Below, piece by piece: positions 5,663 to 20,363 of a DNA stretch of 64,000 nucleotides. This DNA is from an uncultured Myxococcales bacterium (GTDB lineage: Bacteria; Myxococcota_A; UBA9160; UBA4427). The notes under the pieces were generated by a model, which saw nothing but the letters and a program-made list of their open reading frames with translations, was not told the origin of the DNA and did not search any database. The number at the start of each line of letters is the position of its first letter. Position 1 is the first letter of the stretch. The translations under genes and the position numbers were made by a program. The stretch is taken from positions 57,531-121,530 of the forward strand of contig CBFDDD010000002.1 in assembly GCA_965603475.1 (NCBI GenBank), written 5' to 3'.

Positions 5663-5727
5663 GTAGTCGAGCTGCATTTTTTCTTGTGTCGCGAGAACAT
5701 CTTTCTGTATGGGTTAAAAAACCTACA

Positions 5728-5773
5728 CAATGGTCTGATAGTGATTGACGTAGGCTGACCATGGGTCATGCTT
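5728..5773 (+). promoter_or_regulatory. Candidate sigma70 promoter and operator(s) upstream of the fab cluster
   Basis: TTGACG at 5745-5750 with a weak -10 (CATGCT) ~16-17 nt downstream. Perfect inverted repeat TGACC-ATG-GGTCA (5756-5768) lies in the spacer; TGGTCTGA lies just upstream of the -35. Confidence 0.35.
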
Positions 5774-6038
5774 GGGAAGCAGGGGTGATGTACTTCAAGA
5801 ATTTGCGAGAGATTTGCAGTTCGGACCTCCATCCACCGCTATTTTCAAGCTCAGGCCTCGCTCTTGCGTGGCCTGTGGGCGACCGTTGCAGCCAGCCGAT
5901 CCGGCCCAGGAGGGGTGGGACCCGCCCGGAAAGCTGCGGTCGTCGTCGCCTGAGCTCCGCGAGATTTGAGCGCCTGCGACCGGGACTGTCGTCGAAGCGA
6001 GAGGCGAACCGAGAGGCGATCGGTTCAGCAAGCGCGAA

Positions 6039-7028
6039 TTGAAGGGGATTCTCTTGGGCAAGAAGCAGGCTACGAACGATTCTGGAGAACATTTTCCGAG
6101 CAACGAATGGGCATTGATTCTTGGTGGCTCGAGTGGGTTTGGTCTTGCGACGGCGAAGCGCCTTGCGCGTGCCGGACTGAATATCCTGATCGTTCATCGG
6201 GATCGTCGCGGAGCCATGAAGGCCATCCAGCCACATTTCGATGAGCTGGCCGAGTTCGGTACGGGACTTCATATCTGGAATGCCGATGCCATCAGTTCGG
6301 ACAAGCGATCGGAGACGATCGACTCGATCGCCGAGGCGATTGGACCCGACGGCCGCATCCGGGTGCTGCTGCACTCGATCGCCTTCGGGAATCTAAAACT
6401 CATCGCGCCCGAAAAACTCGAGAAACGCACGGCGGGTCCGAATCTCGCCAAGAGGCTCGGAGTCGATCCCGCGAAGCTGACCGAGATTGCCGACGAGCTC
6501 TTCGATGAAGGTGAGGACGGACTTCATCCTCTGACGTCGGCCCCCAGCTATCCCGATAGCTCTTACCTGGACGAGGAAGATTTCAGTCGCACGATCCTGG
6601 CGATGGGTACCAGCCTGCTGGGTTGGACCCAGGATCTTTTCAAGCGGGGCCTTTTCGCTCCTGATACTCGAATCTTCGGGCTGACCAGTGAGGGAAACGA
6701 GGTCGCCTGGCGAGGCTATGCAGCCGTTTCCGCGGCGAAGGTCTCTCTCGAGGCACTCTCCCGATCCATCGCGATCGAATTCGGTCCCTATGGCATCCGC
6801 TGCAACGTGATCCAGGCCGGGGTGACCAACACCCCTGCCCTTCGCGCTATTCCCGGCAGCGATCAGCTCAAGAGTCAGGCTCGACTTCGAAATCCCGGCT
6901 GTCGACTGACCACCCCTGAAGACGTCGCGGGCGTGATCTTCCTGCTCTCACAAGATGAAGCGAGTTGGATCAATGGCGAAGTCATTCGGGTCGACGGCGG
7001 GGAGCATATCTCTGGTGCGACGCGATGA
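6039..7028 (+). CDS. Enoyl-ACP reductase-like SDR (FabL/FabI type)
   Basis: Rossmann GGSSGFG; YX6K catalytic motif (YAAVSAAK); CNVIQAGVTNTPAL; first gene of the fab cluster. Start codon uncertain (TTG). Confidence 0.8.
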   Translation: MKGILLGKKQATNDSGEHFPSNEWALILGGSSGFGLATAKRLARAGLNILIVHRDRRGAMKAIQPHFDELAEFGTGLHIWNADAISSDKRSETIDSIAEAIGPDGRIRVLLHSIAFGNLKLIAPEKLEKRTAGPNLAKRLGVDPAKLTEIADELFDEGEDGLHPLTSAPSYPDSSYLDEEDFSRTILAMGTSLLGWTQDLFKRGLFAPDTRIFGLTSEGNEVAWRGYAAVSAAKVSLEALSRSIAIEFGPYGIRCNVIQAGVTNTPALRAIPGSDQLKSQARLRNPGCRLTTPEDVAGVIFLLSQDEASWINGEVIRVDGGEHISGATR

Positions 7029-7052
7029 TGACGGATAGCTGAGGGTACAGTC

Positions 7053-8048
7053 TTGAGCTTGAACCTGTTGGGATTGGGTCATTTCCATCCCGAGAACGAG
7101 ATAACGAATCAGTTCCTCGAGGACCTCGACATTGGCACCAATGACGAGTGGATTCTCGAGCGAACGGGCATTCGCAGCCGCAGAACAGCGCTGCCCCTCG
7201 ACTATATTCGGGAGACGCGGAACAAAGATCCGCGCGCCGCGGTCGAGTCCGCGGTGATCTCCAATGCCGAGTCCGGCGCTCGGGCCGCCGAGATGGCGCT
7301 TTCCCGCGCCGGAATTGCTGCCAGCGACGTCGGACTCTTGATAGGCGGTGGCTGCGCGCCGGATACAGTGACGCCTGCAGAAGCCTGCAATATCGGTGCA
7401 GCGCTCGGTGTCGAAGCACCTTGTCTCGACATCAACTCCGCGTGCTCGAGTTTCATTGCGGGTATCTACATGCTCTCGATGATGGATCCGACAAAACTGC
7501 CTCCGATCGTTCTGCTCGTCACAGCGGAGCCCATGACGGGGACAGTCGACTACAGCGATCGCTCTTCAGCCGTACTCTGGGGGGATGGTGCCCTCGCTGG
7601 GGTGCTGTCGACCAAGGAGACTGGGCGCGCGTCGCTCGTGGGCCAGACACTCACGAGTAATCCCGCCGGCCGAGAGAAAATCGTCATTCCTAGGCTCGGC
7701 CATTTTCGCCAGGAAGGTCGGACCGTTCAGAGCTTTGCGATTCGGAAAACCTCCAACCGCTATCTCTCTATGCGAGAGTCCTTCAGGCAGGACGATCGGG
7801 CCTTTCACTTCGTGGGCCACCAGGCAAATCTACGAATGCTCGAGTCCGTGTGTCGTCGCTGCGAGATTCCCAACGACCTCCATCATTCCAATTGTGAATT
7901 TTTCGGCAATACGGGGGGCGCAAGCTCCGGTGGCGTAATCTCCCAGAACTGGGACAAATGGACCCCAAGAGACGACATCAGCGTGGTTGGTGTCGGTGCG
8001 GGGCTGACCTGGGGCAGCTATCTGATGCGCTTCAATGAGGACGACTGA
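7053..8048 (+). CDS. fabH: 3-oxoacyl-ACP synthase III
   Basis: WILERTGIRSR; Cys-His-Asn triad (SACSSF, HQAN, GNTG); GVGAGLTWG. Confidence 0.9.
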   Translation: MSLNLLGLGHFHPENEITNQFLEDLDIGTNDEWILERTGIRSRRTALPLDYIRETRNKDPRAAVESAVISNAESGARAAEMALSRAGIAASDVGLLIGGGCAPDTVTPAEACNIGAALGVEAPCLDINSACSSFIAGIYMLSMMDPTKLPPIVLLVTAEPMTGTVDYSDRSSAVLWGDGALAGVLSTKETGRASLVGQTLTSNPAGREKIVIPRLGHFRQEGRTVQSFAIRKTSNRYLSMRESFRQDDRAFHFVGHQANLRMLESVCRRCEIPNDLHHSNCEFFGNTGGASSGGVISQNWDKWTPRDDISVVGVGAGLTWGSYLMRFNEDD

Positions 8049-8054
8049 ATAACG

Positions 8055-8648
8055 ATGCTGACCCATGCTGAATTTCTTGGCCGCAATGCCTTCACGAAGC
8101 CGGATCTGCTGGCCTTCGCCTACGGCCGTCTGATCGAGAACCCGCCGGAGGGGTTTCGGGCGCGTCTACCCTTGCCGCCGATGCTCATGGTCGACCGGAT
8201 CGACCATATCAGCGCCGACAAGAGCCGAGGCAAGCTGAGTGCCTCGCGCGATGTCCAGCTCGATGATTGGTTCTTTCATTGTCATTTCCTCGATGATCCG
8301 GTTCAACCTGGATGTCTCGGACTCGACGGAGTCTGGCAGCTGCTTGGCTTCTATTGCAATTGGCGTGGTGGAGTAGGGACGGGTCGCGCCCTAGGTTGTG
8401 GTGAGGTCGAGTTCTTCGGACAGATTCGGCCGCATGACGGAGTGATGCGCTACGAGGTTCAGGTGAAGCGATACACCGAGCTCAAGAATGCGGGAGCCTC
8501 GATGATCATCGGAGACGCCCAGGTTCTGATCGACGATGAGGAAATCTATACGGTGAAGGGAGCCCGGGTCGGGTTGTTTCGAGACATCGACTATCCGGAT
8601 TATCCCTATGAATCAAAGAATGCCCACGGCGGAAGGAACGAAGCATGA
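8055..8648 (+). CDS. fabA: 3-hydroxyacyl-ACP dehydratase/isomerase, FabA type
   Basis: LPLPPMLMVDRI; WFFHCHFLDDPVQPGCLGLD (His-Asp dyad typical of FabA); GRALGCGEVEFFGQI. Confidence 0.9.
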   Translation: MLTHAEFLGRNAFTKPDLLAFAYGRLIENPPEGFRARLPLPPMLMVDRIDHISADKSRGKLSASRDVQLDDWFFHCHFLDDPVQPGCLGLDGVWQLLGFYCNWRGGVGTGRALGCGEVEFFGQIRPHDGVMRYEVQVKRYTELKNAGASMIIGDAQVLIDDEEIYTVKGARVGLFRDIDYPDYPYESKNAHGGRNEA

Positions 8649-9373
8649 GCGATCAGCCTGTCGCCCTCGTGACCGGTGGCGGAACCGGAATTGGTGCAGC
8701 CTGTTGTCGCCAGCTGGCCGCCGAAGGCTTTCGAGTCGGCATCCACTATCGATCGAGTGAGGAAAAGGCCAAGAAGCTAGCCGCCGAGCTGGATGGTGCG
8801 TTTACGATCAAGGCCGATTTGATGGATTCGGAGTCTCTGGATGCGCTCGTGAAGGAGCTGAAAGAAGTGGCCGGCCGGATCGATGTTCTCGTCAATAACG
8901 CGGGATACAACATCAATGCGCCGATGCTCGCGATGAAACTCGACGAATACGATGCTGTGGCCAGTGTGGCGCGAGGCACCTGGTACCTGACGAAGCTCGT
9001 GTTGCGCCGGTTCATGTTGCGAAAGGGAACGGGGCGCGTCATCAATATTTCGAGTGTCGTGGGTCATACCGGTAATCCAGGCCAGATTCCGTATACGATG
9101 GTCAAGGCCGGCCTCGATGCCTTCACAAAGTCGCTCGCTCAGGAACTCGCGGGTCGCGATATCCTTGTGAACGCGGTCGCACCGGGCTTCATCGATACCG
9201 AGATGACGGAAGAACTACCCGAAGAAGTGAAGGAGGCGATTCTGTCCAAGATTCCCATGGGCAGAACCGGCAAAGCCGACGAGATTGCGGATGTGGTCGC
9301 GTTTCTGGCCACACGCGGAAGCTATGTCAACGGCAGCGTGCTTCACGTGAACGGAGGCATGTACGGTGGGTGA
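8645..9373 (+). CDS. fabG: 3-oxoacyl-ACP reductase
   Basis: TGGGTGIG, NNAG, ISSVVG, YTMVK and VAPGFIDTEM; ATGA overlap with fabA. Confidence 0.9.
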   Translation: MSDQPVALVTGGGTGIGAACCRQLAAEGFRVGIHYRSSEEKAKKLAAELDGAFTIKADLMDSESLDALVKELKEVAGRIDVLVNNAGYNINAPMLAMKLDEYDAVASVARGTWYLTKLVLRRFMLRKGTGRVINISSVVGHTGNPGQIPYTMVKAGLDAFTKSLAQELAGRDILVNAVAPGFIDTEMTEELPEEVKEAILSKIPMGRTGKADEIADVVAFLATRGSYVNGSVLHVNGGMYGG

Positions 9374-9824
9374 TAGCCTGACGAGGGAAGAAGTACTCGC
9401 GATGGTGCCCCAACAGGAGCCCTTCCGTTTCATCGACGAAATTGTCGAACTCGACGCGGAGCATATCGTGGCGCGGCATACATTCTCGCCGGACGCTGAC
9501 TTCTATCGTGGTCATTTTCCCGGCAACCCGATCACGCCTGGCGTGATATTGATCGAGACTGCGGCTCAAGCCGCAGTGGTTGCATTCGGCATCTATCTCT
9601 ACGCACTCGAGACGTCACGCGAGGATGTCGACAAATTGCTGACGATTTTCACGGACTGCAATATCGACTTTTCGGGCACGGTCCGGCCGGGAGATCGCGT
9701 CGAGACGACCGGACGAATCAAGTTCTTTCGCCGCAAGAAGTTGCGAGCGACCTTTGAGATGACGATCGATGATGGGACAGTCGTTTGTTCAGGAGAACTG
9801 TCCGGAATGGGAGTACCGAGATGA
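9366..9824 (+). CDS. fabZ: 3-hydroxyacyl-ACP dehydratase, FabZ type
   Basis: PQQEPFRFIDEI; GHFPGNPITPGVILIE (His-Glu dyad typical of FabZ); VRPGD. Confidence 0.85.
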   Translation: MGDSLTREEVLAMVPQQEPFRFIDEIVELDAEHIVARHTFSPDADFYRGHFPGNPITPGVILIETAAQAAVVAFGIYLYALETSREDVDKLLTIFTDCNIDFSGTVRPGDRVETTGRIKFFRRKKLRATFEMTIDDGTVVCSGELSGMGVPR

Positions 9825-11113
9825 GCGCGAAGGACGAAAGAACGCGCGTTGTGATCACGGGTCTCGGTGTAATCGCCCCGAATGCGAACGGGGTTGCCGA
9901 CTTTGATATGGCATTGCGCAAGGGTCAATCCGGGCTGAAGCACCAGGAGAAGATGGCCGAGGCGAAATTCGGCTGCACAGTCGCCGGGACTCCCGTTGGG
10001 GTGGACGCGCTTTGCGACGAAACCTTCACGCAAGAACAGCTTCTCGCAATGAACATGAATCAGCGTTATGCGAGTCTGGCAGCGATCGAAGCCTGGGAGG
10101 ATGCCGGTCTCGCGCGACCCACTGAAGATTCAGATGAGGTCGACTGGCGAACCGGAGCGATTCTCGGCACGGGTATCGGCGGAATGGACACGATTGCCGA
10201 AAAGGTCGTTCCGTTTACGGACGCAGGTAAGGTTCGAAGGATGGGATCGACCTGCGTCGAGCAGGTGATGGCGAGCGGAATTTCGGCTCGTCTCTCGGGG
10301 TTGCTCGCCCTTGGCAATCAAGTGACGACCAATTCCAGCGCATGCAGTACCGGCACTGAGGCGCTTTCCATGGGGATGGAGCGAATTCGCGCTGGGCTCG
10401 CGGATCGCATGCTCTGCGGTGGAGCCGAAGCGGCGAGTCACTACATCTGGTCGGGCTTCGACGCGATGCGCGTACTGAACCGGGGCTCGAACGACGAGCC
10501 GGAGAAGGCTTCACGACCCCTCAGCGCTTCGGCCGGCGGATTCATTCCGGGTTCGGGTGCGGGTGTCGTTCTACTCGAGAGCCTCGAGAGCGCGCAGGGT
10601 CGTGGCGCACATATCCATGCTGAACTGATCGGCTCGAGTTTGAACTGTGGCGGCCATAGAATGGGCGGCAGTATGACGGCACCCAATCCGACCAGTGTTC
10701 AACGATGCATCGGAGATGCGCTGGCCGATGCGGGCGTCCATCCCGATCAGGTCGATGCGATCAACGGTCATTTGACGGCGACGGGTGCGGATCCCAAGGA
10801 GGTCGCTGCCTGGGCAAAAGCGCTCGGACGGGCGCCGGGAACCCTGCCGCCGATCACGGCGACCAAGAGTATGATCGGTCATGCTCTCGGAGCGGCTGGG
10901 GGCATCGAATCCGTTGCTTCTGCTTTGATGGTGGAGCGCGGGTATGTGCATCCCAGCATCAATTGTGAGGATGTACATCCAGATATCGAGATGCACGCTG
11001 CGTCGATTCCGCATAGCGCACTCGACTTGCCAGATCTCGACATTCTGGTCAAGGCGGGTTTCGGTTTCGGAGACGTCAACGCCTGTCTGGTTTTCAAGCG
11101 CTACAAGGCGTAG
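9821..11113 (+). CDS. fabF: Beta-ketoacyl-ACP synthase (FabF/FabB family)
   Basis: VVITGLG; Cys-His-His triad (SACSTG, INGHLT, KSMIGH); GFGFG. Start at ATG 9821, overlapping the fabZ stop. Confidence 0.85.
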   Translation: MSAKDERTRVVITGLGVIAPNANGVADFDMALRKGQSGLKHQEKMAEAKFGCTVAGTPVGVDALCDETFTQEQLLAMNMNQRYASLAAIEAWEDAGLARPTEDSDEVDWRTGAILGTGIGGMDTIAEKVVPFTDAGKVRRMGSTCVEQVMASGISARLSGLLALGNQVTTNSSACSTGTEALSMGMERIRAGLADRMLCGGAEAASHYIWSGFDAMRVLNRGSNDEPEKASRPLSASAGGFIPGSGAGVVLLESLESAQGRGAHIHAELIGSSLNCGGHRMGGSMTAPNPTSVQRCIGDALADAGVHPDQVDAINGHLTATGADPKEVAAWAKALGRAPGTLPPITATKSMIGHALGAAGGIESVASALMVERGYVHPSINCEDVHPDIEMHAASIPHSALDLPDLDILVKAGFGFGDVNACLVFKRYKA

Positions 11114-11179
11114 CGCTCGTGCGACTCGTCAGAAGGCGAGCCGAAGAATTTTCTGGGACGAAGTATAGGAGTGGAAGTG

Positions 11180-11425
11180 ATGGAACAGTCGGAAGTCATG
11201 GAGCGAGTGGTCAAGATTCTCACACCGTGGGTGAAGGATGAGGCGGCGTTGGGCAAGGTCTCGATGGAGACCAATATTCTCGAAGACCTGAAGGTCAACT
11301 CGGCGCGACTCGTCGATGTCGTGATCGCCTTCGAGGACGATTTCGATATCGAGATCGCTGATGAGGACGTCGACCAGGTGAATACGGTCGGTGACGCGGT
11401 CAACCTTATCTCGGGGAAACTCTAG
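11180..11425 (+). CDS. acpP: Acyl carrier protein
   Basis: Small acidic protein, EDLKVNSARLVDVVIAFEDDFDIEI...TVGDAV; AGGAG RBS 8 nt before ATG 11180. Confidence 0.88.
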   Translation: MEQSEVMERVVKILTPWVKDEAALGKVSMETNILEDLKVNSARLVDVVIAFEDDFDIEIADEDVDQVNTVGDAVNLISGKL

Positions 11426-11510
11426 TCCGATATCGGACCTGATCGGGCGAGATGAACTGCGGGCGGATCGTGTGACTGTGGCCAGAAGACCAACAGTCAA
11501 GAATTCGGGG

Positions 11511-12239
11511 ATGGTGCGACGACACGCGCGGCAGCGTGTTATCAGCATGATTGCGGCACCGGTATGGCTTCTACTTCCAGTGCTCGCGCTCCGATTTTAT
11601 TTTCGATACCGGATCGCGAATGTCCAATCGGTTCGAGCGCAGTACAGGCGAATTCACGCCGAGTCGAACGCACCGATGCTGATCTGCGCAAATCATTTGA
11701 CGCTGATCGACTCCTTTCTTGTCGCATGGGCGTTGGGATCGGGGTTCTATTGGCTTCGCCACCCCGATGAGTTGCCGTGGAACACGCCAGAGAGCACGAA
11801 TTTCGGGAAGACCCGGATTTCACGGATGCTGATCTTCGTCATGAAATGTATTTCGATCACTCGGGGTGGTCCGCGCGAAGACGTTGGCGTTGTCCTCGAG
11901 CGCGTGAAATATCTGCTCTTGAATGGCGAGACCGCACTGCTCTTTCCCGAGGCGGGGCGAAGTCGATCGGGTCGCGTAGAGGAAGATGCTGCTGCCTGGG
12001 GCGTTGGTCGCGTTATTGGCGCGGTTCCTCGCTGCCGCGTGCTGTGTGTCTATCTGCGGGGTCGCCAGCAAGCAACATGGAGCGATACTCCAGCAAAGGG
12101 CGACACGCTGGATGTGTCGCTCGTATGTATCGAGCCAAAGAGCGATGCGAAAGGCGTACGTCGCTCTCGCGATCTAGCCAAACAAGTGACAGGTCAGCTG
12201 GTGAGGATGGAGGGAGACTATTTCGATGCTCGGCAATGA
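11511..12239 (+). CDS. PlsC-like (LPLAT) acyltransferase
   Basis: HX4D motif (ANHLTLIDS); FPEAGRS; N-terminal hydrophobic segment. Start uncertain (GTG 11478 or ATG 11511). Confidence 0.8.
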   Translation: MVRRHARQRVISMIAAPVWLLLPVLALRFYFRYRIANVQSVRAQYRRIHAESNAPMLICANHLTLIDSFLVAWALGSGFYWLRHPDELPWNTPESTNFGKTRISRMLIFVMKCISITRGGPREDVGVVLERVKYLLLNGETALLFPEAGRSRSGRVEEDAAAWGVGRVIGAVPRCRVLCVYLRGRQQATWSDTPAKGDTLDVSLVCIEPKSDAKGVRRSRDLAKQVTGQLVRMEGDYFDARQ

Positions 12240-12951
12240 CATCGTTGATCTCCGGGATTCCGATGCTCGTCCCGAGAGCTTTCGTGCGCGTTTCGACGAT
12301 CGCGTCTTCTCCGCCGAGGAGCAACGTGCGATCGCGCAAGATTCGAATCCTCTCGCGCGCCGCTGGGCCCACTGGGGAGCCAAGGAAGCGGCGTACAAAC
12401 TTGCGAAGCAGTTTGATTCGAGATTCGTGTTCACTCCCGGACGACTGGTCGCTCACTATGTCGACGACGAAAACAATGTCGCTTTGTCGCGCCGCGTCGT
12501 TTCTCGACTTGAACGGCGAGGCGAGCTTGAATTGCCATTCCCACTCCCGCAAGGAACGCGCATGCTGGAGTTGCGGAGCTTTGAAACCCCCGATCGAGTT
12601 CATGTCGTCGCTGTGCCCCAGGGTTCGGATTGGGGTGCTGTCGAAGTGGCTGTAGAGGCGCTCGACCGCAACTCGGATGACCCGAGCGTGGCGGTTCGCG
12701 CTTTGGCGATTCGTGGGATCAGCCGTAGCCTCGGCATAGCGCCAGGGCGACTCAGTATCGGTCGTGAGGGTCGAATACCCACTGTTGAACTCGATGGGTT
12801 GCGAACTCCCCTGTCTCTTTCGCTCTCCCATCACGGGGGTTGGATCGCCTATGCGATGAGGCTTCGGATGGACTTTCAAAACCAATCGATCTGGACCGAA
12901 GACCAGACAGATTCTGCTGCCCGAGCGGCGGGGGCGGTGTGGACTCCATGA
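12226..12951 (+). CDS. 4'-phosphopantetheinyl transferase (Sfp/AcpS superfamily)
   Basis: LGNDIVDL; WGAKEAAYK; C-terminal LSLSHHG; overlaps both neighbouring genes. Confidence 0.85.
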   Translation: MLGNDIVDLRDSDARPESFRARFDDRVFSAEEQRAIAQDSNPLARRWAHWGAKEAAYKLAKQFDSRFVFTPGRLVAHYVDDENNVALSRRVVSRLERRGELELPFPLPQGTRMLELRSFETPDRVHVVAVPQGSDWGAVEVAVEALDRNSDDPSVAVRALAIRGISRSLGIAPGRLSIGREGRIPTVELDGLRTPLSLSLSHHGGWIAYAMRLRMDFQNQSIWTEDQTDSAARAAGAVWTP

Positions 12952-15900
12952 CGAGTGAAAAGCCGGGTCTGCGGAAAATCGAACGTCTCGCGATCGTCAA
13001 TCGAGGCGAAGCGGCTGTTCGATGTCTTCGCACAGCAAAAAGTCTTCGCGAATGCGAAGGTGGCGGTCTCGAGATCATCGCGCTGTATACGCCGCCGGAT
13101 CGCGATGCGCCATTTGTGAAACAAGCCGATCGGGCAGTCCTACTACCCACGGAAAACGGCGCAGTCGCGGCCTATCTCGATCATGATGCGCTGCTCGCGG
13201 CATTGCGCGAGGTTGGAGCCGATGCTGTCTGGCCTGGCTGGGGTTTCGTTGCTGAAGATCCGGTTTTCGTCGACAGGCTGACGAGTGAAGGAATCGTGTT
13301 TCTCGGTCCAACTGCCGACGCTATGCGAATGCTCGGCGACAAAATCACTTCCAAGCACCTCGCGGAAAAGGCCGGTGTACCGGTTACGGAATGGAGCGGC
13401 GGCGAAGTCGTGGATGAAGCCGAAGCGCTCGTGCATGCCGAGCGGATCGGTTTTCCGGTCGTGCTCAAGGCGACCGCCGGCGGCGGTGGCCGCGGTATCC
13501 GAATGGTCGAGAAAGCGGGCGAGCTCGCCGATGCTTTTCGGTCCGCTCAGTCGGAAGCGGTATCGGCGTTTGGCAACGGAGCACTCTTCGTCGAATCGAT
13601 GGTTCGCGATGGCCGCCATATAGAGGTCCAGATCGCGGCGGACCGTCACGGCCATGCGCTCGCCGTCGGTTGTCGCGACTGTTCTGTCCAACGACGTCAT
13701 CAGAAGGTCCTCGAAGAAGCTCCGCCTCCCGGCGTTTCAGACGACATGATTCGGCGGCTGGAAGAGTCGGCCATTCGACTGGTCGAACACGTCGGCTATC
13801 ACGGAGTCGGTACTGTCGAGTTCTTGCTGACAGGTGATGATTTCTTTTTCCTCGAGGTCAATCCCCGCCTTCAGGTCGAGCATGGCATTACGGAGCTCAT
13901 CGCGGGTATCGATCTCGTCGAACTCCAGATCCGCATCGCACGCGGTGAATCGATCGCCGACACTAGGGTTCAACAACGGGGGATTGCGCTCGAGGCACGC
14001 CTCAATGCCGAGGACCCCGATGAGGGTTTCCTGCCTTCACCCGGTCGGATCGCACTCTTTGAGCCCGCCCTCGGACCGAATACTCGCATCGACTCCGGCG
14101 TCACGACAAATAGTGTTATTTCTTCGGAATTCGATTCTCTGATCGCGAAGGTGATCGCGAGTGGTGATGACCGGGCAGAAGTGATCGCGCGACTTTCCTG
14201 CGCGCTGCGAGATCTCGAGCTGGTTGTCGAGGGCGGTGCAACCAACAAGGGCTATCTGCTCGATATCCTCGCGAGTGACGATTTTCGAGCAGGCGGCGTA
14301 GATACCCGCTGGCTGGATCGTTGGGGCGAAGATCGACAGAGCATCACGCTTTCGCATCCCGTCTTGACACAGGATGCCCTTGTCGCCGCGGCGATTCTCG
14401 CCTATCAGCGAACTCGCGCGACACTGCGCACGGGAATATTCGGTGGACGAGGGAGTGGAGATCGCCTGCCTTCTTCCGAGGGTCAGCAGATCGATCTTAC
14501 TTTTGGCACGGAAAGCTATCGGCTCAAAGTCTACGCGATCGGCTCCTGGCGGTATCGAGTCCATCTCGAAGGTGCCGCCGTCGGTGCGACGATGCGAGAA
14601 GAGGGGGCACATGCCGGCCGTCTGATCATCGATGATCGTATTCGCCGCATCATCCACGACGTCAATGATCGGGGATTGCGTCTCGAAGTAGATGGTCATC
14701 CGTTGCGCTTCGGTTCGCAGACTGCAGGCCAGGTTCGCTCGAGCACGCCCGCCGTCGTCGTCGCCATCCAGGTTGAGGTCGGCCAGAGCGTTGCGGTTGG
14801 AGATCCGCTCGGTCTACTCGAAGCAATGAAAATGGAAATTGGATTCCAGGCACCGGTTGCGGGGACGATCAAAGAAATTCTCGTCCAGAAGGGACAGCAG
14901 GTCGCCGCTGGAGACCTGATTCTGGTCATCGAGGAATCGGCGACGGACGCAGAAGACGCGCCGGCACGTACCCGGCTGAGTCTTCCGGCCCAGGTCGATC
15001 CGCTCGCGCGGCTCTTCCAATCGCAGACTCATGAGGATGGTCATCGCGTGCTCGGAGCACCCGACCTGTCGGCTGCGGACCAGGCAGATCTTGCATCGCG
15101 GCGGGTCGCGATCGACGCGGCTCGGGAGGAGATCCGCCGGGTTCTTCTTGGCTACGACGCGAACCCAGACCGTGCCGAATTGCTCGCATCCTTTCTCGAA
15201 GCGCCTCTCCCGGAGACCATCTCGGAGAGTTTCAGTCGCGAGCTCGCAGAAATTCGCCATGAGGTCACGACCTTTGCGGATGTCGAACAGCTCTTCATCC
15301 GTTCCCCGAACGCCTCGATTTCGGGACAATCCGGACCTTCGAACGCCGCTCGTCTACGCATGTACCTGCGGCGGATCGAGGCGGAAGGGTCCGGGATCGA
15401 CGAGAGTTTTCTTGATCTCGTACGGGCAGCGTTGTCGCATTATGGTGTTTCAGACCTCGCCCCGACCGACGCACTGAGCCGTGCGTTGCTGCGTATCCTG
15501 ACGTGCCAGGTAGACAAGAAGCTTCGCCTCAGCCTGATCCTGGGGGTTCTTCGTCGAATTACGGTTTTGGCCCAGCGAGGCATCTACATGGGTGACGACG
15601 ACCGTCTCGCCCGCGCGCTCAACCGTATTGCACGCATGCGTCCCCAGGTAACGGATACCGTTGCTGATGCAGCACTCGAATCCGCCTATATGGTGTTCCT
15701 GCAGCCCGGCATCGAGGAGCGCGCGAAGCGGTCGTCCAGCACAGTCGAGGATTGGCTTGCCGCTGCAGAAGTGGACCTCATTGCACCACCGGCTGGTGTA
15801 TTGCTGGAAGTCGCATCGTCGCCACGACTCGTCTTCGAGAGAGTGGGTCGCTGGATTGGGGGTTCAGATACGAATCGTCGGGCCATCGCTCTAGCGGCTC

Positions 15901-18569
15901 ACGTGCAGCGTCGATATGCGCCGTGTACCCCCGATGCGTATAGAGCGGTACGCGTCGATGGAGAACCGATTCACTGCGTGGAGTACAAAGACAAAGGCGT
16001 CGTTCTGGCGGCGACGGGCGGAGCATCGGAAACGAGCCTATGGATGGATCGTCTCGTACGTGGAGCCGATTCGCTTCTCGATCGCGATCCGGAGACTCCG
16101 ATCGTTGCACTCGAGTATCTGATGCCGGCCGGCGACGAACTCGATTGGGACGAGGTCATGGGTGCGGTCCAGAAGGCTTATTCGGACAGGGAGCTTGGCT
16201 GGCGTATGACAATCGGTGTTCTGACACCGGATGGAGAAGGTGACGTCTATCGAACCCTCATTAGGCGAGGAGGTCGGCTCGAGATTGCACTCGAACATCA
16301 CGACCTACATCCGGAAACCGCTGGGCGGATCGCGCTCGATCGATATGAAGCTTTTGATCTAGAGCGACTACAGGCCGAAGAGGGGACCTACGCCTTCTAT
16401 GGCCGCGCACGCAATGTGCCGGGTGACGAACGTGTGATCGTGCTCGCGGACGCACGAGATCGTTCGCCCGAACCGGGTCGCGAACTCTATCACCATCTTG
16501 CGACCTTCGAGCGAGTCTTCAATCGCGCAGCCAGACGCCTCCGCACGGTTCTTCAGACCCATGACCCACGTCGCCGTCTGCAGTGGAATCGCATCGCGAT
16601 ATTCATCGCTCCGTCGATCTTCGTCGATCAGGAAGTCGCGAGTGATATCGCGAGACGGCTCGCGCCGGCGACTCGACATCTGGGCCTGGAAAAGGTCATC
16701 GTCAAATTGAATCGACTCGATCGGGAGAATCCAGACCAGCCCGCCGCGCCCTGGGAACTCGTGATCACGGACACAGGAGAACAGCTCGAAGTCGTCTGGC
16801 GAGAGCCGCATAGCACGCCGCTGGCGCCGACGCAGGAATACGAGAGAAGGGTTGTCGCCGCTCGCCGAAGAAAGCTGATCTACCCATACGAGATCGTGAA
16901 GATGCTCACGAGCGAGGCGCCCGACGGATCGCGTGCCGACGGGTCTTTCGAGGAATACGACCTCGACGAGCAGAACCCGACCCCGGTCGCGGTGAGCGTT
17001 GCGGATCGTCCCTATGGTCAGAATCGCTCTGCGGTCGTTTTCGGTCTGATTCGTACGCCCACCGAGAAGGTGCCCGAGGGCATGTTGCGCGTGCTCGTGC
17101 TTTCGGATCCAACCATGGGAATGGGAGCGCTTTCGGCTCCGGAATGCGACCGATTGGTTGCAGCATTTGATCTTGCAGAGAGTCTAGGCGTGCCCCTCGA
17201 GTGGGTACCTGTGTCATCGGGCGCGAAAATCGCGATGGATAGCGGGACCGAGAATCTCGACGCGACGGCCCGTGTCGTTCGCCGTATCGTCACGTTCACA
17301 CAGAGCGGTGGCATCGTGCACGTGATCGTGCAGGGCGTCAACGTGGGTGCGCAAAGCTATTTCGATGCTCTCGCAACAATGCTGACACACACGAGTGGTG
17401 TGCTCATCATGACGCAGAATGCATCGATGGTGTTGACCGGTCGTGCGGCACTCGAAGCGTCGGGTGCCGTTTCCGCTGAAGACGAGATCGCAATCGGCGG
17501 ATTCGAACGGATCATGGGTCCAAATGGTGAGGCGCAGTACTTCGCGCGAAATCTCGCCGACGCCTATCGCATCCTCTACGACCACTATCGATATACCTAC
17601 ATCGTGCCCGGAGAAAACGCTCCGCGTCCCTTCGTGACGACCGATAATCGAACGCGATCGGTCGGGGATTCGTCGATTGCGAGCGCTGATTCCGATGGAC
17701 TCGCAACGGTTGGTGAAATTTTCGACAATGAGACGAACCCGGGACGGAAGCGCCCCTTCGCGATGCGCGGCGTGATGAGCGCGTTGATCGATGTCGACGG
17801 CGGCCATCTCGAGCGCTGGAATGCCTGGGTCGGAGCGGAGACTGCAATCATCTGGGATGCACATGTCGGCGGGCACCCGGTTTCGCTGATCGGAATCGAA
17901 AGTCGCAATGTTCCGCGGGACGGCTACCGCCCAGTCGATGGACCCGAAAGCTGGAACGGCGGTACGCTGTTTCCGCAATCGTCGAAAAAGGTTGCGCGCG
18001 CGATCAATGCTGCGAGCGGAAACCGCCCGATCGTCGTGTTGGCCAATCTATCCGGCTTCGATGGATCACCGGAATCCCTACGAAAGATGCAGCTGGAGAA
18101 TGGTGCCGAGATTGCGCGGGCAGTCGTCAATTTCCAGGGTCCGATCTACTTCGTCGTCGTTTCCCGCTACCACGGTGGTGCGTACGTCGTGTTTTCCCAG
18201 GAACTGAACGACAACATGAAAGCAGCCGCGCTGTCGGGTTCATATGCATCGGTCATCGGCGGCGGACCGGCCGCTGCGGTGGTATTCGGACGCGAAGTTC
18301 GTGCGCAGGCTCTCGACGATCCCCGAGTGAAGGACAAGACCGAGATTGCTCGACGAAATCCGACCGAGATGAATAGGGCGGCGCTCGAATCGGTGCTACG
18401 AGAAGTCACCTTGGAAAAGCAGGCGTCGATGGCCGTGGAATTCGATTCGGTCCACACCGTCGAGCGCGCTCGTGAGGTTGGTTCGCTTTCCGAAATCTTC
18501 GAGCCTGCTGAGCTGCGGCCTCGCGTGATTGCGGCCCTGGAAGAGTCGCTTAGCGACGCTTCCGGTTAG
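12948..18569 (+). CDS. Single-chain multidomain acyl-CoA (acetyl-CoA) carboxylase: BC-BCCP-central domain-CT
   Basis: BC motifs (NRGEAAVR, GGGGRGIR, RDCSVQRRHQK, EVNPRLQVEH); biotin site EAMKME; CT motifs (SSGAKI, GVNVGAQSY, ANLSGFDGS, RYHGGAYVVFS). ATG 12948 overlaps the PPTase stop; 1873 aa. Confidence 0.9.
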   Translation: MTSEKPGLRKIERLAIVNRGEAAVRCLRTAKSLRECEGGGLEIIALYTPPDRDAPFVKQADRAVLLPTENGAVAAYLDHDALLAALREVGADAVWPGWGFVAEDPVFVDRLTSEGIVFLGPTADAMRMLGDKITSKHLAEKAGVPVTEWSGGEVVDEAEALVHAERIGFPVVLKATAGGGGRGIRMVEKAGELADAFRSAQSEAVSAFGNGALFVESMVRDGRHIEVQIAADRHGHALAVGCRDCSVQRRHQKVLEEAPPPGVSDDMIRRLEESAIRLVEHVGYHGVGTVEFLLTGDDFFFLEVNPRLQVEHGITELIAGIDLVELQIRIARGESIADTRVQQRGIALEARLNAEDPDEGFLPSPGRIALFEPALGPNTRIDSGVTTNSVISSEFDSLIAKVIASGDDRAEVIARLSCALRDLELVVEGGATNKGYLLDILASDDFRAGGVDTRWLDRWGEDRQSITLSHPVLTQDALVAAAILAYQRTRATLRTGIFGGRGSGDRLPSSEGQQIDLTFGTESYRLKVYAIGSWRYRVHLEGAAVGATMREEGAHAGRLIIDDRIRRIIHDVNDRGLRLEVDGHPLRFGSQTAGQVRSSTPAVVVAIQVEVGQSVAVGDPLGLLEAMKMEIGFQAPVAGTIKEILVQKGQQVAAGDLILVIEESATDAEDAPARTRLSLPAQVDPLARLFQSQTHEDGHRVLGAPDLSAADQADLASRRVAIDAAREEIRRVLLGYDANPDRAELLASFLEAPLPETISESFSRELAEIRHEVTTFADVEQLFIRSPNASISGQSGPSNAARLRMYLRRIEAEGSGIDESFLDLVRAALSHYGVSDLAPTDALSRALLRILTCQVDKKLRLSLILGVLRRITVLAQRGIYMGDDDRLARALNRIARMRPQVTDTVADAALESAYMVFLQPGIEERAKRSSSTVEDWLAAAEVDLIAPPAGVLLEVASSPRLVFERVGRWIGGSDTNRRAIALAAHVQRRYAPCTPDAYRAVRVDGEPIHCVEYKDKGVVLAATGGASETSLWMDRLVRGADSLLDRDPETPIVALEYLMPAGDELDWDEVMGAVQKAYSDRELGWRMTIGVLTPDGEGDVYRTLIRRGGRLEIALEHHDLHPETAGRIALDRYEAFDLERLQAEEGTYAFYGRARNVPGDERVIVLADARDRSPEPGRELYHHLATFERVFNRAARRLRTVLQTHDPRRRLQWNRIAIFIAPSIFVDQEVASDIARRLAPATRHLGLEKVIVKLNRLDRENPDQPAAPWELVITDTGEQLEVVWREPHSTPLAPTQEYERRVVAARRRKLIYPYEIVKMLTSEAPDGSRADGSFEEYDLDEQNPTPVAVSVADRPYGQNRSAVVFGLIRTPTEKVPEGMLRVLVLSDPTMGMGALSAPECDRLVAAFDLAESLGVPLEWVPVSSGAKIAMDSGTENLDATARVVRRIVTFTQSGGIVHVIVQGVNVGAQSYFDALATMLTHTSGVLIMTQNASMVLTGRAALEASGAVSAEDEIAIGGFERIMGPNGEAQYFARNLADAYRILYDHYRYTYIVPGENAPRPFVTTDNRTRSVGDSSIASADSDGLATVGEIFDNETNPGRKRPFAMRGVMSALIDVDGGHLERWNAWVGAETAIIWDAHVGGHPVSLIGIESRNVPRDGYRPVDGPESWNGGTLFPQSSKKVARAINAASGNRPIVVLANLSGFDGSPESLRKMQLENGAEIARAVVNFQGPIYFVVVSRYHGGAYVVFSQELNDNMKAAALSGSYASVIGGGPAAAVVFGREVRAQALDDPRVKDKTEIARRNPTEMNRAALESVLREVTLEKQASMAVEFDSVHTVERAREVGSLSEIFEPAELRPRVIAALEESLSDASG

Positions 18570-18576
18570 TCCCAAA

Positions 18577-19575
18577 TTGGCTGGACATGACGACGGGCGG
18601 CAGTCCCCCTCAGATTTGCCGCTGCGTTTCCGAGATCGGATTCTGCTGGGCCTTCTGTGGACGTTGACCGTCCTCTTCGAGCGAATTCCGATTGATCGCG
18701 CAGTTTCGCTGGGCGCGAAACTGGGACGGGGCTGGTACGGATTGGGTGGTCCACGGACCCGTCGCGTTCGTGATCAGCTGGAGGCAGCGTTTCCGGAGCA
18801 GGATATTTCCGATCGCGAGAACTGGGCGCGGGAGGTCTTCATTCATCTAGGTAGAGGGCTTGCGGAGCTCGTACTACTTCGGGGGCGCCACCGAACAGCT
18901 CTACTCGATCGCGTCCAGGTCGAGGGCCTCGAACATATCGAGGCGGCCGCGCGCCAGACGCCGTCCGGCGGAGTCTTGATCGTGACGGCGCATTTCGGAA
19001 ATTGGGAGCTCGCTTGCGCCAAGGCCGCGTCGATCGGAATCCCGATTTCGGTGGTCTATCGCCGGCTGCGCCAGCCTTTGCTCGACCGCGCCATGCTCGG
19101 GTTACGAGCCGCTTCGTCGGAGCTGCCGAGTGGGGCAGCGACGGTCGATCAGATCCCAATGGGCCGGGCGGGAATTCGGCTGGTTCGCGCACTCGAGGCG
19201 GGTCGCAAGGTGGTCGTTCTGCTCGATCAGGATGCCCGGCGCAGTGAGGGCGTCTTCGTATCCTTTTTCGGACGACAAGCCAGCACGCGCGATGGGCCGA
19301 TCTCACTCGCGACGAAGCGTGGGGTCCCCGTCGTACTGGTTTTCGTGCGACGTGATGAAGATGGGCGGGCACACAGGCTCCGAATCCAGCCTGCACTCCA
19401 GCTCGAGTCGGGATCGTCCGATGACGAGGAAGTCCTGAGGAGGAATGTTCAGCGCATCACGGCGGCAATCGAAGAGGAAATTCGAGCTTGTCCGGGACAA
19501 TGGATCTGGACTCATCGGCGCTGGCGAACCCGGCCCGCGCCAAAATCCGCGATGTCTGACCGGAACAGGGTCTGA
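18577..19575 (+). CDS. LpxL/HtrB-family (lipid A late) acyltransferase
   Basis: TAHFGNWEL (HX4E), LLDQD, VFVSFFG and PGQWIWTHRRWRT. Start uncertain (TTG 18577 used). Confidence 0.85.
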   Translation: MAGHDDGRQSPSDLPLRFRDRILLGLLWTLTVLFERIPIDRAVSLGAKLGRGWYGLGGPRTRRVRDQLEAAFPEQDISDRENWAREVFIHLGRGLAELVLLRGRHRTALLDRVQVEGLEHIEAAARQTPSGGVLIVTAHFGNWELACAKAASIGIPISVVYRRLRQPLLDRAMLGLRAASSELPSGAATVDQIPMGRAGIRLVRALEAGRKVVVLLDQDARRSEGVFVSFFGRQASTRDGPISLATKRGVPVVLVFVRRDEDGRAHRLRIQPALQLESGSSDDEEVLRRNVQRITAAIEEEIRACPGQWIWTHRRWRTRPAPKSAMSDRNRV

Positions 19576-19613
19576 TCGAAACAGGCCCTTCGAATCATAC
19601 GAGGTCTCTCGAG

Positions 19614-20363
19614 TTGGCTGTTCACCGATCCATACGAACTTCACACACGAGCGGTATCCTCGTCCTCTCGCTCTTGATCGGAGGCTGCGTCAATTCGAAT
19701 AGGCCTGTCGGTTCTTCTTCACTCGATTCCGAAACTTGTCCAAGTGCTGAAGCCGTCGTGAACCTCGAACAAGCCCAGCTCTTTCGAGAGGCAGAGACCG
19801 AACGCGCGACGCAACTCCTGCAAGAGATCGAAAGGCTTCATGCCGACCTCGAGACTGCCGAGGCCGCGCTCGTCGAAGCAGAGTCTGGTCTTGCAACGAC
19901 ACATTCCCGAGCGGATGCCATTTCATCCATCGCAGTGACACGCATCCAGGTCGAACGGGCAGCGTCCTCCGCGCCGTGGCGAGCGGATGATATCGCGATG
20001 GCGCGAACCAAACTCGAAGAGGCCGAACGTCAGGTCGAAGAAGATCGATTTGGTGTTGCTCTCTTCTTCGTTCACCGGGCACGTCGAGCCGCCGAATCGA
20101 TCCTCGACGAAGCGGACCTCGTACGGCGCGACGGGCACGTCCAGCTGATTCAAGCGCCCCGCGTGAACTTGCGGGCAGGACCGTCTACGAGCGAATCGAT
20201 CTTGTCTGTGCTCAGTTTTGGGACGCCCGTGTTTCCCCAAGCGCGTGAAGGCAACTGGGTACTCGTCCAGGTCAGCGGGGGCCCCGTCGGATGGATCCAT
20301 CGACGGTTGGTCGGTACACGATTCTCGACCGAGAGTGAGGCCCCGGCAGCGCTCAGGCCTTAG
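19614..20363 (+). CDS. Lipoprotein with coiled-coil region and C-terminal bacterial SH3 domain
   Basis: Lipobox LIGGC; helical Ala/Glu-rich middle; VNLRAGPST...GNWVLVQ...GWIHRRLV (SH3b). Confidence 0.7.
   Translation: MAVHRSIRTSHTSGILVLSLLIGGCVNSNRPVGSSSLDSETCPSAEAVVNLEQAQLFREAETERATQLLQEIERLHADLETAEAALVEAESGLATTHSRADAISSIAVTRIQVERAASSAPWRADDIAMARTKLEEAERQVEEDRFGVALFFVHRARRAAESILDEADLVRRDGHVQLIQAPRVNLRAGPSTSESILSVLSFGTPVFPQAREGNWVLVQVSGGPVGWIHRRLVGTRFSTESEAPAALRP

Follow-up and report, generated by a model that had tools for sequence, protein, structure and literature searches.

Is the eleven-gene lipid cluster at positions 6039-19575 of this stretch of DNA the fatty acid synthase on which its host depends, or a dedicated pathway to some specialised acyl chain? 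The stretch, which we call the window, comprises 64,000 nucleotides of contig CBFDDD010000002.1 (positions 57,531 to 121,530) from the assembly of an uncultured Myxococcales bacterium, GCA_965603475.1. The initial annotation offered these two possibilities as alternatives; its gene calls and its idea of an operon have stood up, but neither alternative fits cleanly. Our best reading is that a family of uncultured Myxococcota from marine sediment has here its main operon for fatty acids and membrane lipids, and that the operon is neither a stand-alone nor a secondary-metabolite pathway. More specifically, we are moderately confident that it is the lineage's housekeeping operon of fab genes and acetyl-CoA carboxylase (ACC), in which is embedded a private module of β-ketoacyl-ACP synthase (KAS), acyl carrier protein (ACP) and phosphopantetheinyl transferase (PPTase), together with an acyltransferase resembling glycerol-3-phosphate acyltransferase (GPAT).

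The housekeeping reading follows from what the cluster and the genome each need of the other. The cluster relies on FabD from outside; the rest of the genome relies on the cluster for its dehydratase and ketoreductase, certainly for LpxL and probably for the ACC. FabZ, FabA, a true LpxL and the best FabG outside an aryl-polyene-type locus are found only here, and an accA-type carboxylase is missing from the genome; the cluster is therefore no side pathway that the cell could do without. Most parts of the operon are ordinary fatty-acid enzymes. What is unusual is the eukaryote-type ACC core in a Gram-negative order, the division of type II fatty acid synthesis (FAS II) over two loci, and the private module.

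Gene content of the operon

The cluster consists of eleven consecutive + strand open reading frames (ORFs), whose identities are backed by Pfam and NCBIfam profile matches. This bears out the coordinates and gene calls of the initial annotation, which had described eleven co-directional genes, several of them with overlapping stops and starts; the peptides that it had singled out (EWALILGGSSG, INGHLTAT and LKVNSA) are likewise read in cluster proteins. The genes and their downstream neighbour are:

6039-7028, +, FabL/FabI-like short-chain dehydrogenase/reductase (SDR), candidate enoyl-ACP reductase (Pfam adh_short_C2, 1.4e-39)
7053-8048, +, divergent FabH-type KAS III (NF006829, 191.6 bits, cut-off 249; TIGR00747, 152.5 bits, cut-off 292)
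8055-8648, +, FabA, 3-hydroxydecanoyl-ACP dehydratase/isomerase (NF003509, 200.9 bits, cut-off 124)
8645-9373, +, FabG-type 3-oxoacyl-ACP reductase (TIGR01830, 252.6 bits, cut-off 297.75)
9366-9824, +, FabZ-type 3-hydroxyacyl-ACP dehydratase (NF000582, 76.6 bits, under its cut-off)
9821-11113 (likely ATG; the ORF opens at 9785), +, FabF-like elongating KAS (TIGR03150, 297 bits, under cut-off)
11171-11425, +, non-canonical acyl carrier protein, ACP2 (TIGR00517, 49.5 bits, cut-off 70.45)
11511-12239 (likely start; the ORF opens at 11391), +, acyltransferase of the GPAT and lysophospholipid acyltransferase (LPLAT) family, 'PlsC-like' (Pfam Acyltransferase, 2.4e-8)
12226-12951, +, AcpS-like PPTase (Pfam ACPS, 2.3e-9, residues 2-59)
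12948-18569 (likely ATG; the ORF opens at 12840), +, single-chain ACC of 1873 aa, with biotin carboxylase (BC), biotin carboxyl carrier protein (BCCP), central and carboxyltransferase (CT) regions in that order (Pfam domains)
18529-19575, +, LpxL-family late acyltransferase of lipid A (Pfam Lip_A_acyltrans, 6.1e-41)
19614-20363, +, SH3-domain lipoprotein-like gene, downstream neighbour (Pfam SH3_3; LIGGC lipobox)

In gene order through the SH3 gene, the junctions are +24, +6, -4, -8, -4, +57, +85, -14, -4, -41 (or less) and +38 bp; the likely KAS ATG at 9821 overlaps the FabZ stop. A discrete KAS III, elongating KAS, ketoreductase and dehydratase are thus present with intact catalytic residues, while the reductase is FabL/FabI-like and below its cut-off. 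The motifs that we find intact are the Cys/His/Asn of FabH, the Cys/His/His of KAS, the His/Asp of FabA, the His/Glu of FabZ, HX4D in the PlsC-like protein, HX4E in LpxL and the serine of the ACP. FabA is the sole cluster protein above an NCBIfam equivalog cut-off; it matches the FabA of Pseudomonas aeruginosa and Escherichia coli at E = 1e-45, with the catalytic His and Asp conserved. Pfam and NCBIfam scans find no FabD (malonyl-CoA:ACP transacylase) among the cluster genes. A canonical FabD is encoded on another contig (C24), and the description of the cluster as self-contained therefore fails.

Two of the elongation and reduction enzymes depart from the textbook. The KAS has HLTAT where HGTGT is usual, its best match in the Protein Data Bank (PDB) being FabF (1.6e-61, versus ∼1e-51 for FabB). 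The SDR has FabL as its best NCBIfam match (112 bits, below cut-off), and its best PDB matches, Bacillus subtilis FabL (3oic) and Thermus thermophilus FabI, align in two pieces: the two halves matching B. subtilis FabL are separated by an insertion of ∼90 aa at residues ∼123-210. The SDR also carries a FabV-like nucleotide motif, GGSSGFG. From its sequence, this protein may be a subtype of enoyl-ACP reductase not previously described. It is present in the clusters of 23 loci and in two further families, f12 and f2; in f2 (L096), which has lost the cluster ACP and KAS, it still adjoins the ACC.

The rest of the genome

We searched the window's assembly (5.19 Mb) with curated models and tblastn. 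A canonical FabD (334 bits, cut-off 261) is encoded on contig C24 directly upstream of a canonical acpP, with yceD preceding it. This acpP is split over two contig ends, C24:1-111 and C58:29695-29802, so C24 joins C58; beyond acpP, C58 carries a 439-aa ORF followed by ORFs that by eye look like nrdR and riboflavin-synthesis genes. Two FabH proteins outside the cluster exceed the TIGR00747 cut-off (342 and 320 bits), and one of them is adjoined by a FabF-like KAS (438 bits). A divergent FabI-like reductase, a near-canonical PlsC and two PlsB-like ORFs are also encoded outside the cluster.

The dehydratases are another matter. No FabZ or FabA is found outside the cluster in the window's genome, where TIGR01750 matches the two cluster genes only, and the same holds for each of 15 further genomes of the genus, in which the model picks out the cluster FabZ and FabA alone. 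There is no accA in the genome, and none above cut-off in 26 relatives. Nor does the genome have a second PPTase of family PF01648 (the cluster PPTase being the sole match in the assembly) or another true LpxL. Iterated phmmer and hmmsearch runs with the PlsC-like protein, FabZ, FabA, LpxL and PPTase against the genome's ORFs added nothing beyond the tblastn results, although these profiles are too narrow for distant paralogues. LpxC is present, and lipid A is therefore made. Among five other SDRs tested, only one outscores the cluster FabG, the aryl-polyene-type FabG2 on contig C6; no tested SDR outside that locus equals the cluster protein on the FabG model. The C6 locus, at ∼54000-73500, also contains a KAS, an ACP, a 612-aa hotdog ORF, a PlsC-like gene and a weakly LpxL-like gene, and its FabG2 scores 358 bits to TIGR01831, above the cut-off of 338.85.

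In sum, the functions of FabH, KAS, ACP, enoyl reductase and PlsC are duplicated between the cluster and the rest of the genome, while FabZ, FabA, LpxL, the AcpS-type PPTase and the type of ACC are unique to the cluster. The initial annotation had proposed that a separate FAS II and acc set would mark the cluster as secondary. Such a set is there in part: fabD-acpP, FabH and a FabF-like KAS were found, but an accA-type carboxylase and a fabG at the canonical locus are absent. Nor is the cluster the genome's only FAS II set, given the canonical AcpP, FabD and FabF-like KAS elsewhere.

Across the order, no genome that we looked at was without a canonical AcpP (83-114 bits); the ACP of the cluster scores 40-50 bits and turns up only alongside the cluster KAS. 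The canonical locus of the order is yceD-fabD-acpP-fabF, without fabG throughout. Two of the less complete genomes (G016 and G020) have this canonical locus and no FabZ- or FabA-type match. In a closed genome, G022, AcpP and LpxC are present and FabF, FabZ and the single-chain ACC are not.

A single-chain carboxylase with a eukaryote-type core

Pfam places the ACC domains at 47-493 (BC), 632-697 (BCCP) and 1414-1846 (CT), in the numbering of the ORF, on a single polypeptide with the domain order of SACE_4237. That protein, from Saccharopolyspora erythraea, was the first bacterial multidomain ACC to be described and is the essential ACC for de novo fatty acid synthesis in its host; it is an actinobacterial relative of the cluster ACC (PMC6491548). 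The cluster ACC belongs to the SACE_4237 family, and by analogy it would act as a homodimer with acetyl- and propionyl-CoA carboxylase activity (PMC6491548).

The BC part is similar to bacterial biotin carboxylases. The CT part has its best PDB matches in the CT domains of Chaetomium thermophilum ACC, yeast ACC and human ACC2 (∼1e-15 to 1e-13), with weaker matches to bovine ACC2 and human ACC1, and matches of ∼1e-7 to PccB/AccD5. Its sequence thus lies nearer to eukaryotic ACC than to the β subunits of bacterial propionyl-CoA carboxylase or ACC. The central region, of ∼700 aa, gives no sequence match to Pfam ACC_central. We modelled it (711 aa) with AlphaFold2 from an alignment of 37 sequences, at a mean predicted local distance difference test score (pLDDT) of 83.3. 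The top 30 fold matches of this model are all central domains of yeast, human or Chaetomium ACC (E from 1e-21 to 3e-9), and on the strength of the model we take the two central domains to be homologous.

Of the 121 genomes of the order, 101 have the single-chain ACC, and it occurs in 54 of the 59 genera. We retrieved the surroundings of the ACC for eight genomes belonging to six further families; fab genes adjoin it in all of them, the subset differing by family. Where KAS and ACP are present, the arrangements are ER-FabH-FabG-FabZ-KAS-ACP-PlsC-PPT-ACC and FabH-FabA-FabZ-KAS-ACP-PlsC-(PPT)-ACC, where ER is the enoyl reductase and PPT the PPTase. Where both KAS and ACP2 are missing, they are ER-FabG-ACC, FabH-ACC, FabH-PlsC-ACC and FabZ-ACC. 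In genomes of the latter kind, the orthologues of FabH, FabG, FabZ, the reductase and the acyltransferase that sit beside ACC without KAS and ACP2 can only serve canonical AcpP.

Homologues ∼40% identical to the cluster ACC occur in Pseudonocardia and in Acidobacteriaceae metagenome-assembled genomes (MAGs), in both without the fab genes. The ACCs of Acidobacteriota (L060, L065, L067, L070, L072, L079 and L089; Acidobacteriaceae and others) lie near long ketosynthase-like ORFs (24-25% identity) or FabH-like genes, and the 40%-identical enzyme of these MAGs may supply malonyl-CoA to polyketide-type loci. Other single-chain carboxylases were also seen. The window's genome encodes one of 1093 aa, with the order BC-BCCP-CT and resembling long-chain acyl-CoA carboxylase, at contig C12:63412-66693; most genomes of the genus have a homologue of ∼1100 aa. 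G025, which is without the cluster ACP, has a second, 44%-identical ACC paralogue at C16:4762-8903, with a PPTase gene directly after it.

A second carrier protein and its partners

The cluster ACP is not the canonical AcpP: it falls below the TIGR00517 cut-off and has VNSAR in place of the DSLD motif. Aligned over its whole length with the canonical AcpP of the same genome, ACP2 is 32% identical, with its Ser in register with Ser36. Where AcpP has ADSLDTVE, ACP2 has VNSARLVD, so that its recognition helix begins with an arginine. The motif DLKVNSARLVD is invariant. ACP2 is also the most conserved gene of the cluster, with a median identity of 91.6% and a range across loci of 71-98%.

In every genome examined, KAS and ACP2 are either both present or both absent. 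The PPTase has an internal insertion of ∼130 aa, retains the motifs GNDIVDL, KEAAYK and LSLSHHG, and occurs in its insertion-bearing form in nine of ten ACP2-bearing genomes and none of six ACP2-lacking genomes among those examined. It is this pattern of co-occurrence that defines the private module, and the insertion-bearing AcpS-like PPTase probably activates ACP2. The acyltransferase carries the motifs HX4D and FPEAGRSRSG. Its AlphaFold2 model (pLDDT 82.6) has a single significant PDB fold match, human GPAT1 (8e4y, E = 1.2e-5), and a paralogue is encoded on contig C18.

Conservation and inheritance

A scan with the back-translated carboxylase, taking one genome per species, led us to fetch 78 loci, of which 69 had qualifying matches. 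At least eight of the eleven genes are in the same order in 36 of these 69, and all eleven in 20; most of the other loci are interrupted by contig ends. The eleven-gene arrangement is far beyond chance. All loci at 53-88% ACC identity come from uncultured Myxococcota MAGs, some of them labelled Deltaproteobacteria or Spirochaetaceae. The label 'uncultured Spirochaetaceae', carried by MAGs with the locus at 60-82% identity (L014, L020, L022, L024, L050, L059, L082 and others), is probably a taxonomic mislabel. The least conserved cluster genes are the PPTase (median identity 48.5%) and LpxL (55.8%).

The flanks are conserved too: a thiamine pyrophosphate enzyme and a DinG-like exonuclease-helicase upstream, and the SH3 lipoprotein gene downstream. 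The base composition of the cluster is the same as that of its surroundings. Taken together with the range of ACP2 identity, the native composition and conserved flanks indicate vertical, strongly constrained inheritance at a fixed chromosomal site; a recent horizontal transfer of the cluster was considered and rejected. The SH3-domain gene, which is syntenic in many loci and also adjoins ACC in family f2 (L096), probably lies outside the pathway. Our literature search found no paper on this operon, nor on a multidomain ACC in Myxococcota.

Upstream elements

Comparison with relatives reveals conserved non-coding elements ahead of the first gene:

5745-5818, +, TTGACG box; palindrome TGACC-ATG-GGTCA (5755-5767); TTTGCGAGAGATTTGCA (5802-5818)

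Within 5745-5846 the near-repeat TTTGCGAGAGATTTGCA is joined by a further conserved element, CGCTATTTTC. These elements are kept in six to eight of eight relatives, whereas no such conservation extends over the remainder of the 376-bp spacer, which includes the ∼200 nt leading up to the first start codon. The elements at 5745-5846 are probably a promoter plus an operator for some regulator. An Rfam scan of the operon's 5′ region gave no match, and scans of 5400-20600 for σ70 promoters and intrinsic terminators gave sites no more frequent than in shuffled sequence.

Discussion

If the operon is the housekeeping one, the cell's lipid synthesis would run as follows. Malonyl-CoA would be made by the single-chain, eukaryote-type ACC, and FabD, encoded beside canonical acpP, would load the malonyl group onto a carrier protein. 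The cluster FabG, FabZ, FabA and FabL-like reductase would run the reductive cycle for the whole cell, FabA would give anaerobic access to cis-unsaturated chains, and the terminal LpxL would be the normal late acyltransferase of the cell's lipid A. Using these shared reductive enzymes, the private KAS would extend chains bound to ACP2, creating a separate acyl pool that the GPAT/LPLAT-type acyltransferase would pass directly to a glycerol-phosphate or lyso-lipid acceptor; chains bound to AcpP would go into the usual PlsB/PlsC and Lpx pathways. It is by inference that we assign each enzyme to an ACP, an acceptor to the acyltransferase and a substrate to the ACC.

Several observations weigh against this housekeeping role. 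Outside the cluster the genome encodes a near-complete canonical set (AcpP, FabD, two FabH proteins, a FabF-like KAS, a FabI-like reductase, PlsC and PlsB-like proteins), and three or four other acyl-CoA carboxylases that might also make malonyl-CoA (NCBIfam typing of the other carboxyltransferases gives generic sub-threshold mmdA matches only). Two complete relatives, G021 and G025, have the canonical fabD-acpP-fabF but no FabZ or FabA match, G021 being also without the single-chain ACC; an unrecognised dehydratase may thus exist in this order, and possibly in the window's genome. Most cluster proteins fall under NCBIfam equivalog cut-offs, and the assembly is 92.7% complete. The upstream palindrome and repeat motif is found nowhere else in the genome, which gives no hint of a regulon shared among fab genes. 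The public sequencing runs that contain the stretch are marine-sediment and seawater DNA metagenomes and one of unstated type, with no RNA run identified among them.

Many of the same facts could be assembled into an insulated second fatty acid synthase, in which the whole operon, with its own ACC, works on ACP2 only and makes a specialised chain that is installed by the GPAT-like enzyme and LpxL. The canonical proteins outside the cluster, the other carboxylases, the regulatory motif confined to this locus, the divergence of ACP2 with its changed helix II and co-occurring PPTase, and the retention of acpP-fabF by cluster-less relatives that have no FabZ match, so that another dehydratase may exist, are all in keeping with it. 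It would, however, require the housekeeping FAS II to be complete at other loci, with a dehydratase and a reductase that have escaped recognition and an ACC of two subunits. Yet the cluster is without FabD, no other FabZ or FabA is seen in 16 of 16 genomes of the genus, and the genus has no true LpxL besides that of the cluster. Remnants such as ER-FabG-ACC, FabH-ACC and FabZ-ACC survive where ACP2 and KAS have been lost, which argues that these enzymes are not tied to ACP2. The ACC is near-universal in the order, unlike a patchy accessory pathway, and fabG is missing from the canonical locus. We therefore regard a second synthase as possible but doubtful.

Two narrower readings fare much worse. 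The initial annotation drew an analogy with the rhizobial acpXL-lpxXL pathway, in which lipid A receives a special chain, for instance a very long one, made by an ACP and elongation enzymes dedicated to it, and it is true that a dedicated ACP, FabZ, KAS and an LpxL-family acyltransferase share one operon here. But the cluster LpxL, which carries the motif HFGNWE, is the sole true LpxL of the genus and not an extra paralogue: the best PF03279 match lies beside the cluster in 14 of 16 genus genomes, and the remaining matches are weak and of aryl-polyene type. Other cluster-bearing families (f9, f10 and f4) have LpxL outside the cluster or lack it, and G023 (96% complete) keeps the cluster with no LpxC match and no true LpxL. 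There is one KAS rather than two, and LpxL is among the least conserved cluster genes (median identity 56%). The analogy fails on the sole LpxL and on G023, and we consider a pathway of this type very improbable. We give still less credence to a horizontally acquired secondary-metabolite biosynthetic gene cluster resembling those for aryl polyenes or flexirubin, which is where the 'Bacteroidota-type cassette' named in the initial annotation would lead. The cluster FabG does score 196.8 bits to FlxB, below its threshold (cut-off 340), and the cluster FabZ has a weak ApeI-like Pfam match. To TIGR01831, however, the same FabG scores 162.7 bits against 338.85, a cut-off that the FabG2 of the separate, genuine aryl-polyene-type locus on C6 exceeds. 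The cluster contains no ketosynthase/chain-length-factor pair, no LolA- or MMPL-type export genes and no glycosyltransferase; it occupies a conserved chromosomal position and has a native composition. Every cluster-bearing locus comes from uncultured Myxococcota MAGs, and the Bacteroidota-type cassette finds no support.

Returning to the housekeeping reading, what it means is that an abundant uncultured order has rearranged a highly conserved pathway. A eukaryote-type ACC replaces the multi-subunit enzyme, fabG is gone from the canonical block, and the dehydratases and ketoreductase sit with ACC, joined in this family by the enoyl reductase. With its ACP2, KAS, PPTase and acyltransferase, the private module is a candidate, and a compact one, for a fatty acid synthase with two carriers that would channel one acyl pool to a particular membrane lipid. 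Even if the operon is plain housekeeping, recognising it corrects genome-scale metabolic models that would otherwise score these MAGs as without ACC, FabZ and FabG. The known range of SACE_4237-type ACC is also widened, beyond Actinobacteria to Myxococcota and Acidobacteriota. A published proposal has eukaryotic ACC arising in Actinobacteria, and the new lineages make this testable. Should phylogeny show that these ACCs, and not the actinobacterial ones, are the sister group of eukaryotic ACC, the operon, which also encodes an acyltransferase with GPAT1 as its one significant fold match, would point to a myxobacterial origin of the entry enzymes of eukaryotic cytosolic lipid synthesis. We think this improbable; if true, it would fit syntrophy-type models of eukaryogenesis.

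Comparison with known systems

The closest parallel in organisation is with the all-in-one fab-acc operons of Firmicutes, such as the pneumococcal fabKDGF-accB-fabZ-accCDA, whose logic is comparable (PMC4996995). In both, FAS II enzymes and ACC share one main operon that includes an ACP and a KAS III. The Firmicutes operons encode four ACC subunits, whereas here there is one eukaryote-type polypeptide of 1873 aa. FabD and canonical AcpP are here encoded elsewhere, and the ACP within the operon is non-canonical. A PPTase, a GPAT-like acyltransferase, LpxL and FabA are included, and there is no gene for a FabT-type regulator.

As in E. coli FAS II with its anaerobic FabA/FabB branch, a true FabA is found beside FabZ, FabG, KAS and FabH. 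The partner KAS is, however, FabF-like rather than FabB-like, the reductase is FabL-like with an insertion, and the carrier is not AcpP. The rhizobial acpXL-fabZXL-fabF2XL-fabF1XL-lpxXL cluster (PMC5613085) shares with ours a dedicated second ACP encoded with FabZ, KAS and an LpxL-family acyltransferase. There, accessory elongation stands beside a complete fatty acid synthase and a normal LpxL, whereas our cluster holds the sole FabZ and the sole LpxL, has a single KAS, and persists in a relative showing no LpxC.

Enzyme for enzyme, the carboxylase is best compared with SACE_4237, with which it shares the order BC-BCCP-central-CT, a size of about 200 kDa, a CT domain that groups with eukaryotic ACC and a eukaryotic-type central region. 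Unlike that family, reported from Actinobacteria only, the enzyme described here is near-universal in a Gram-negative order of Myxococcota and is found also in Acidobacteriota MAGs, and unlike SACE_4237 itself it sits inside a fab operon.

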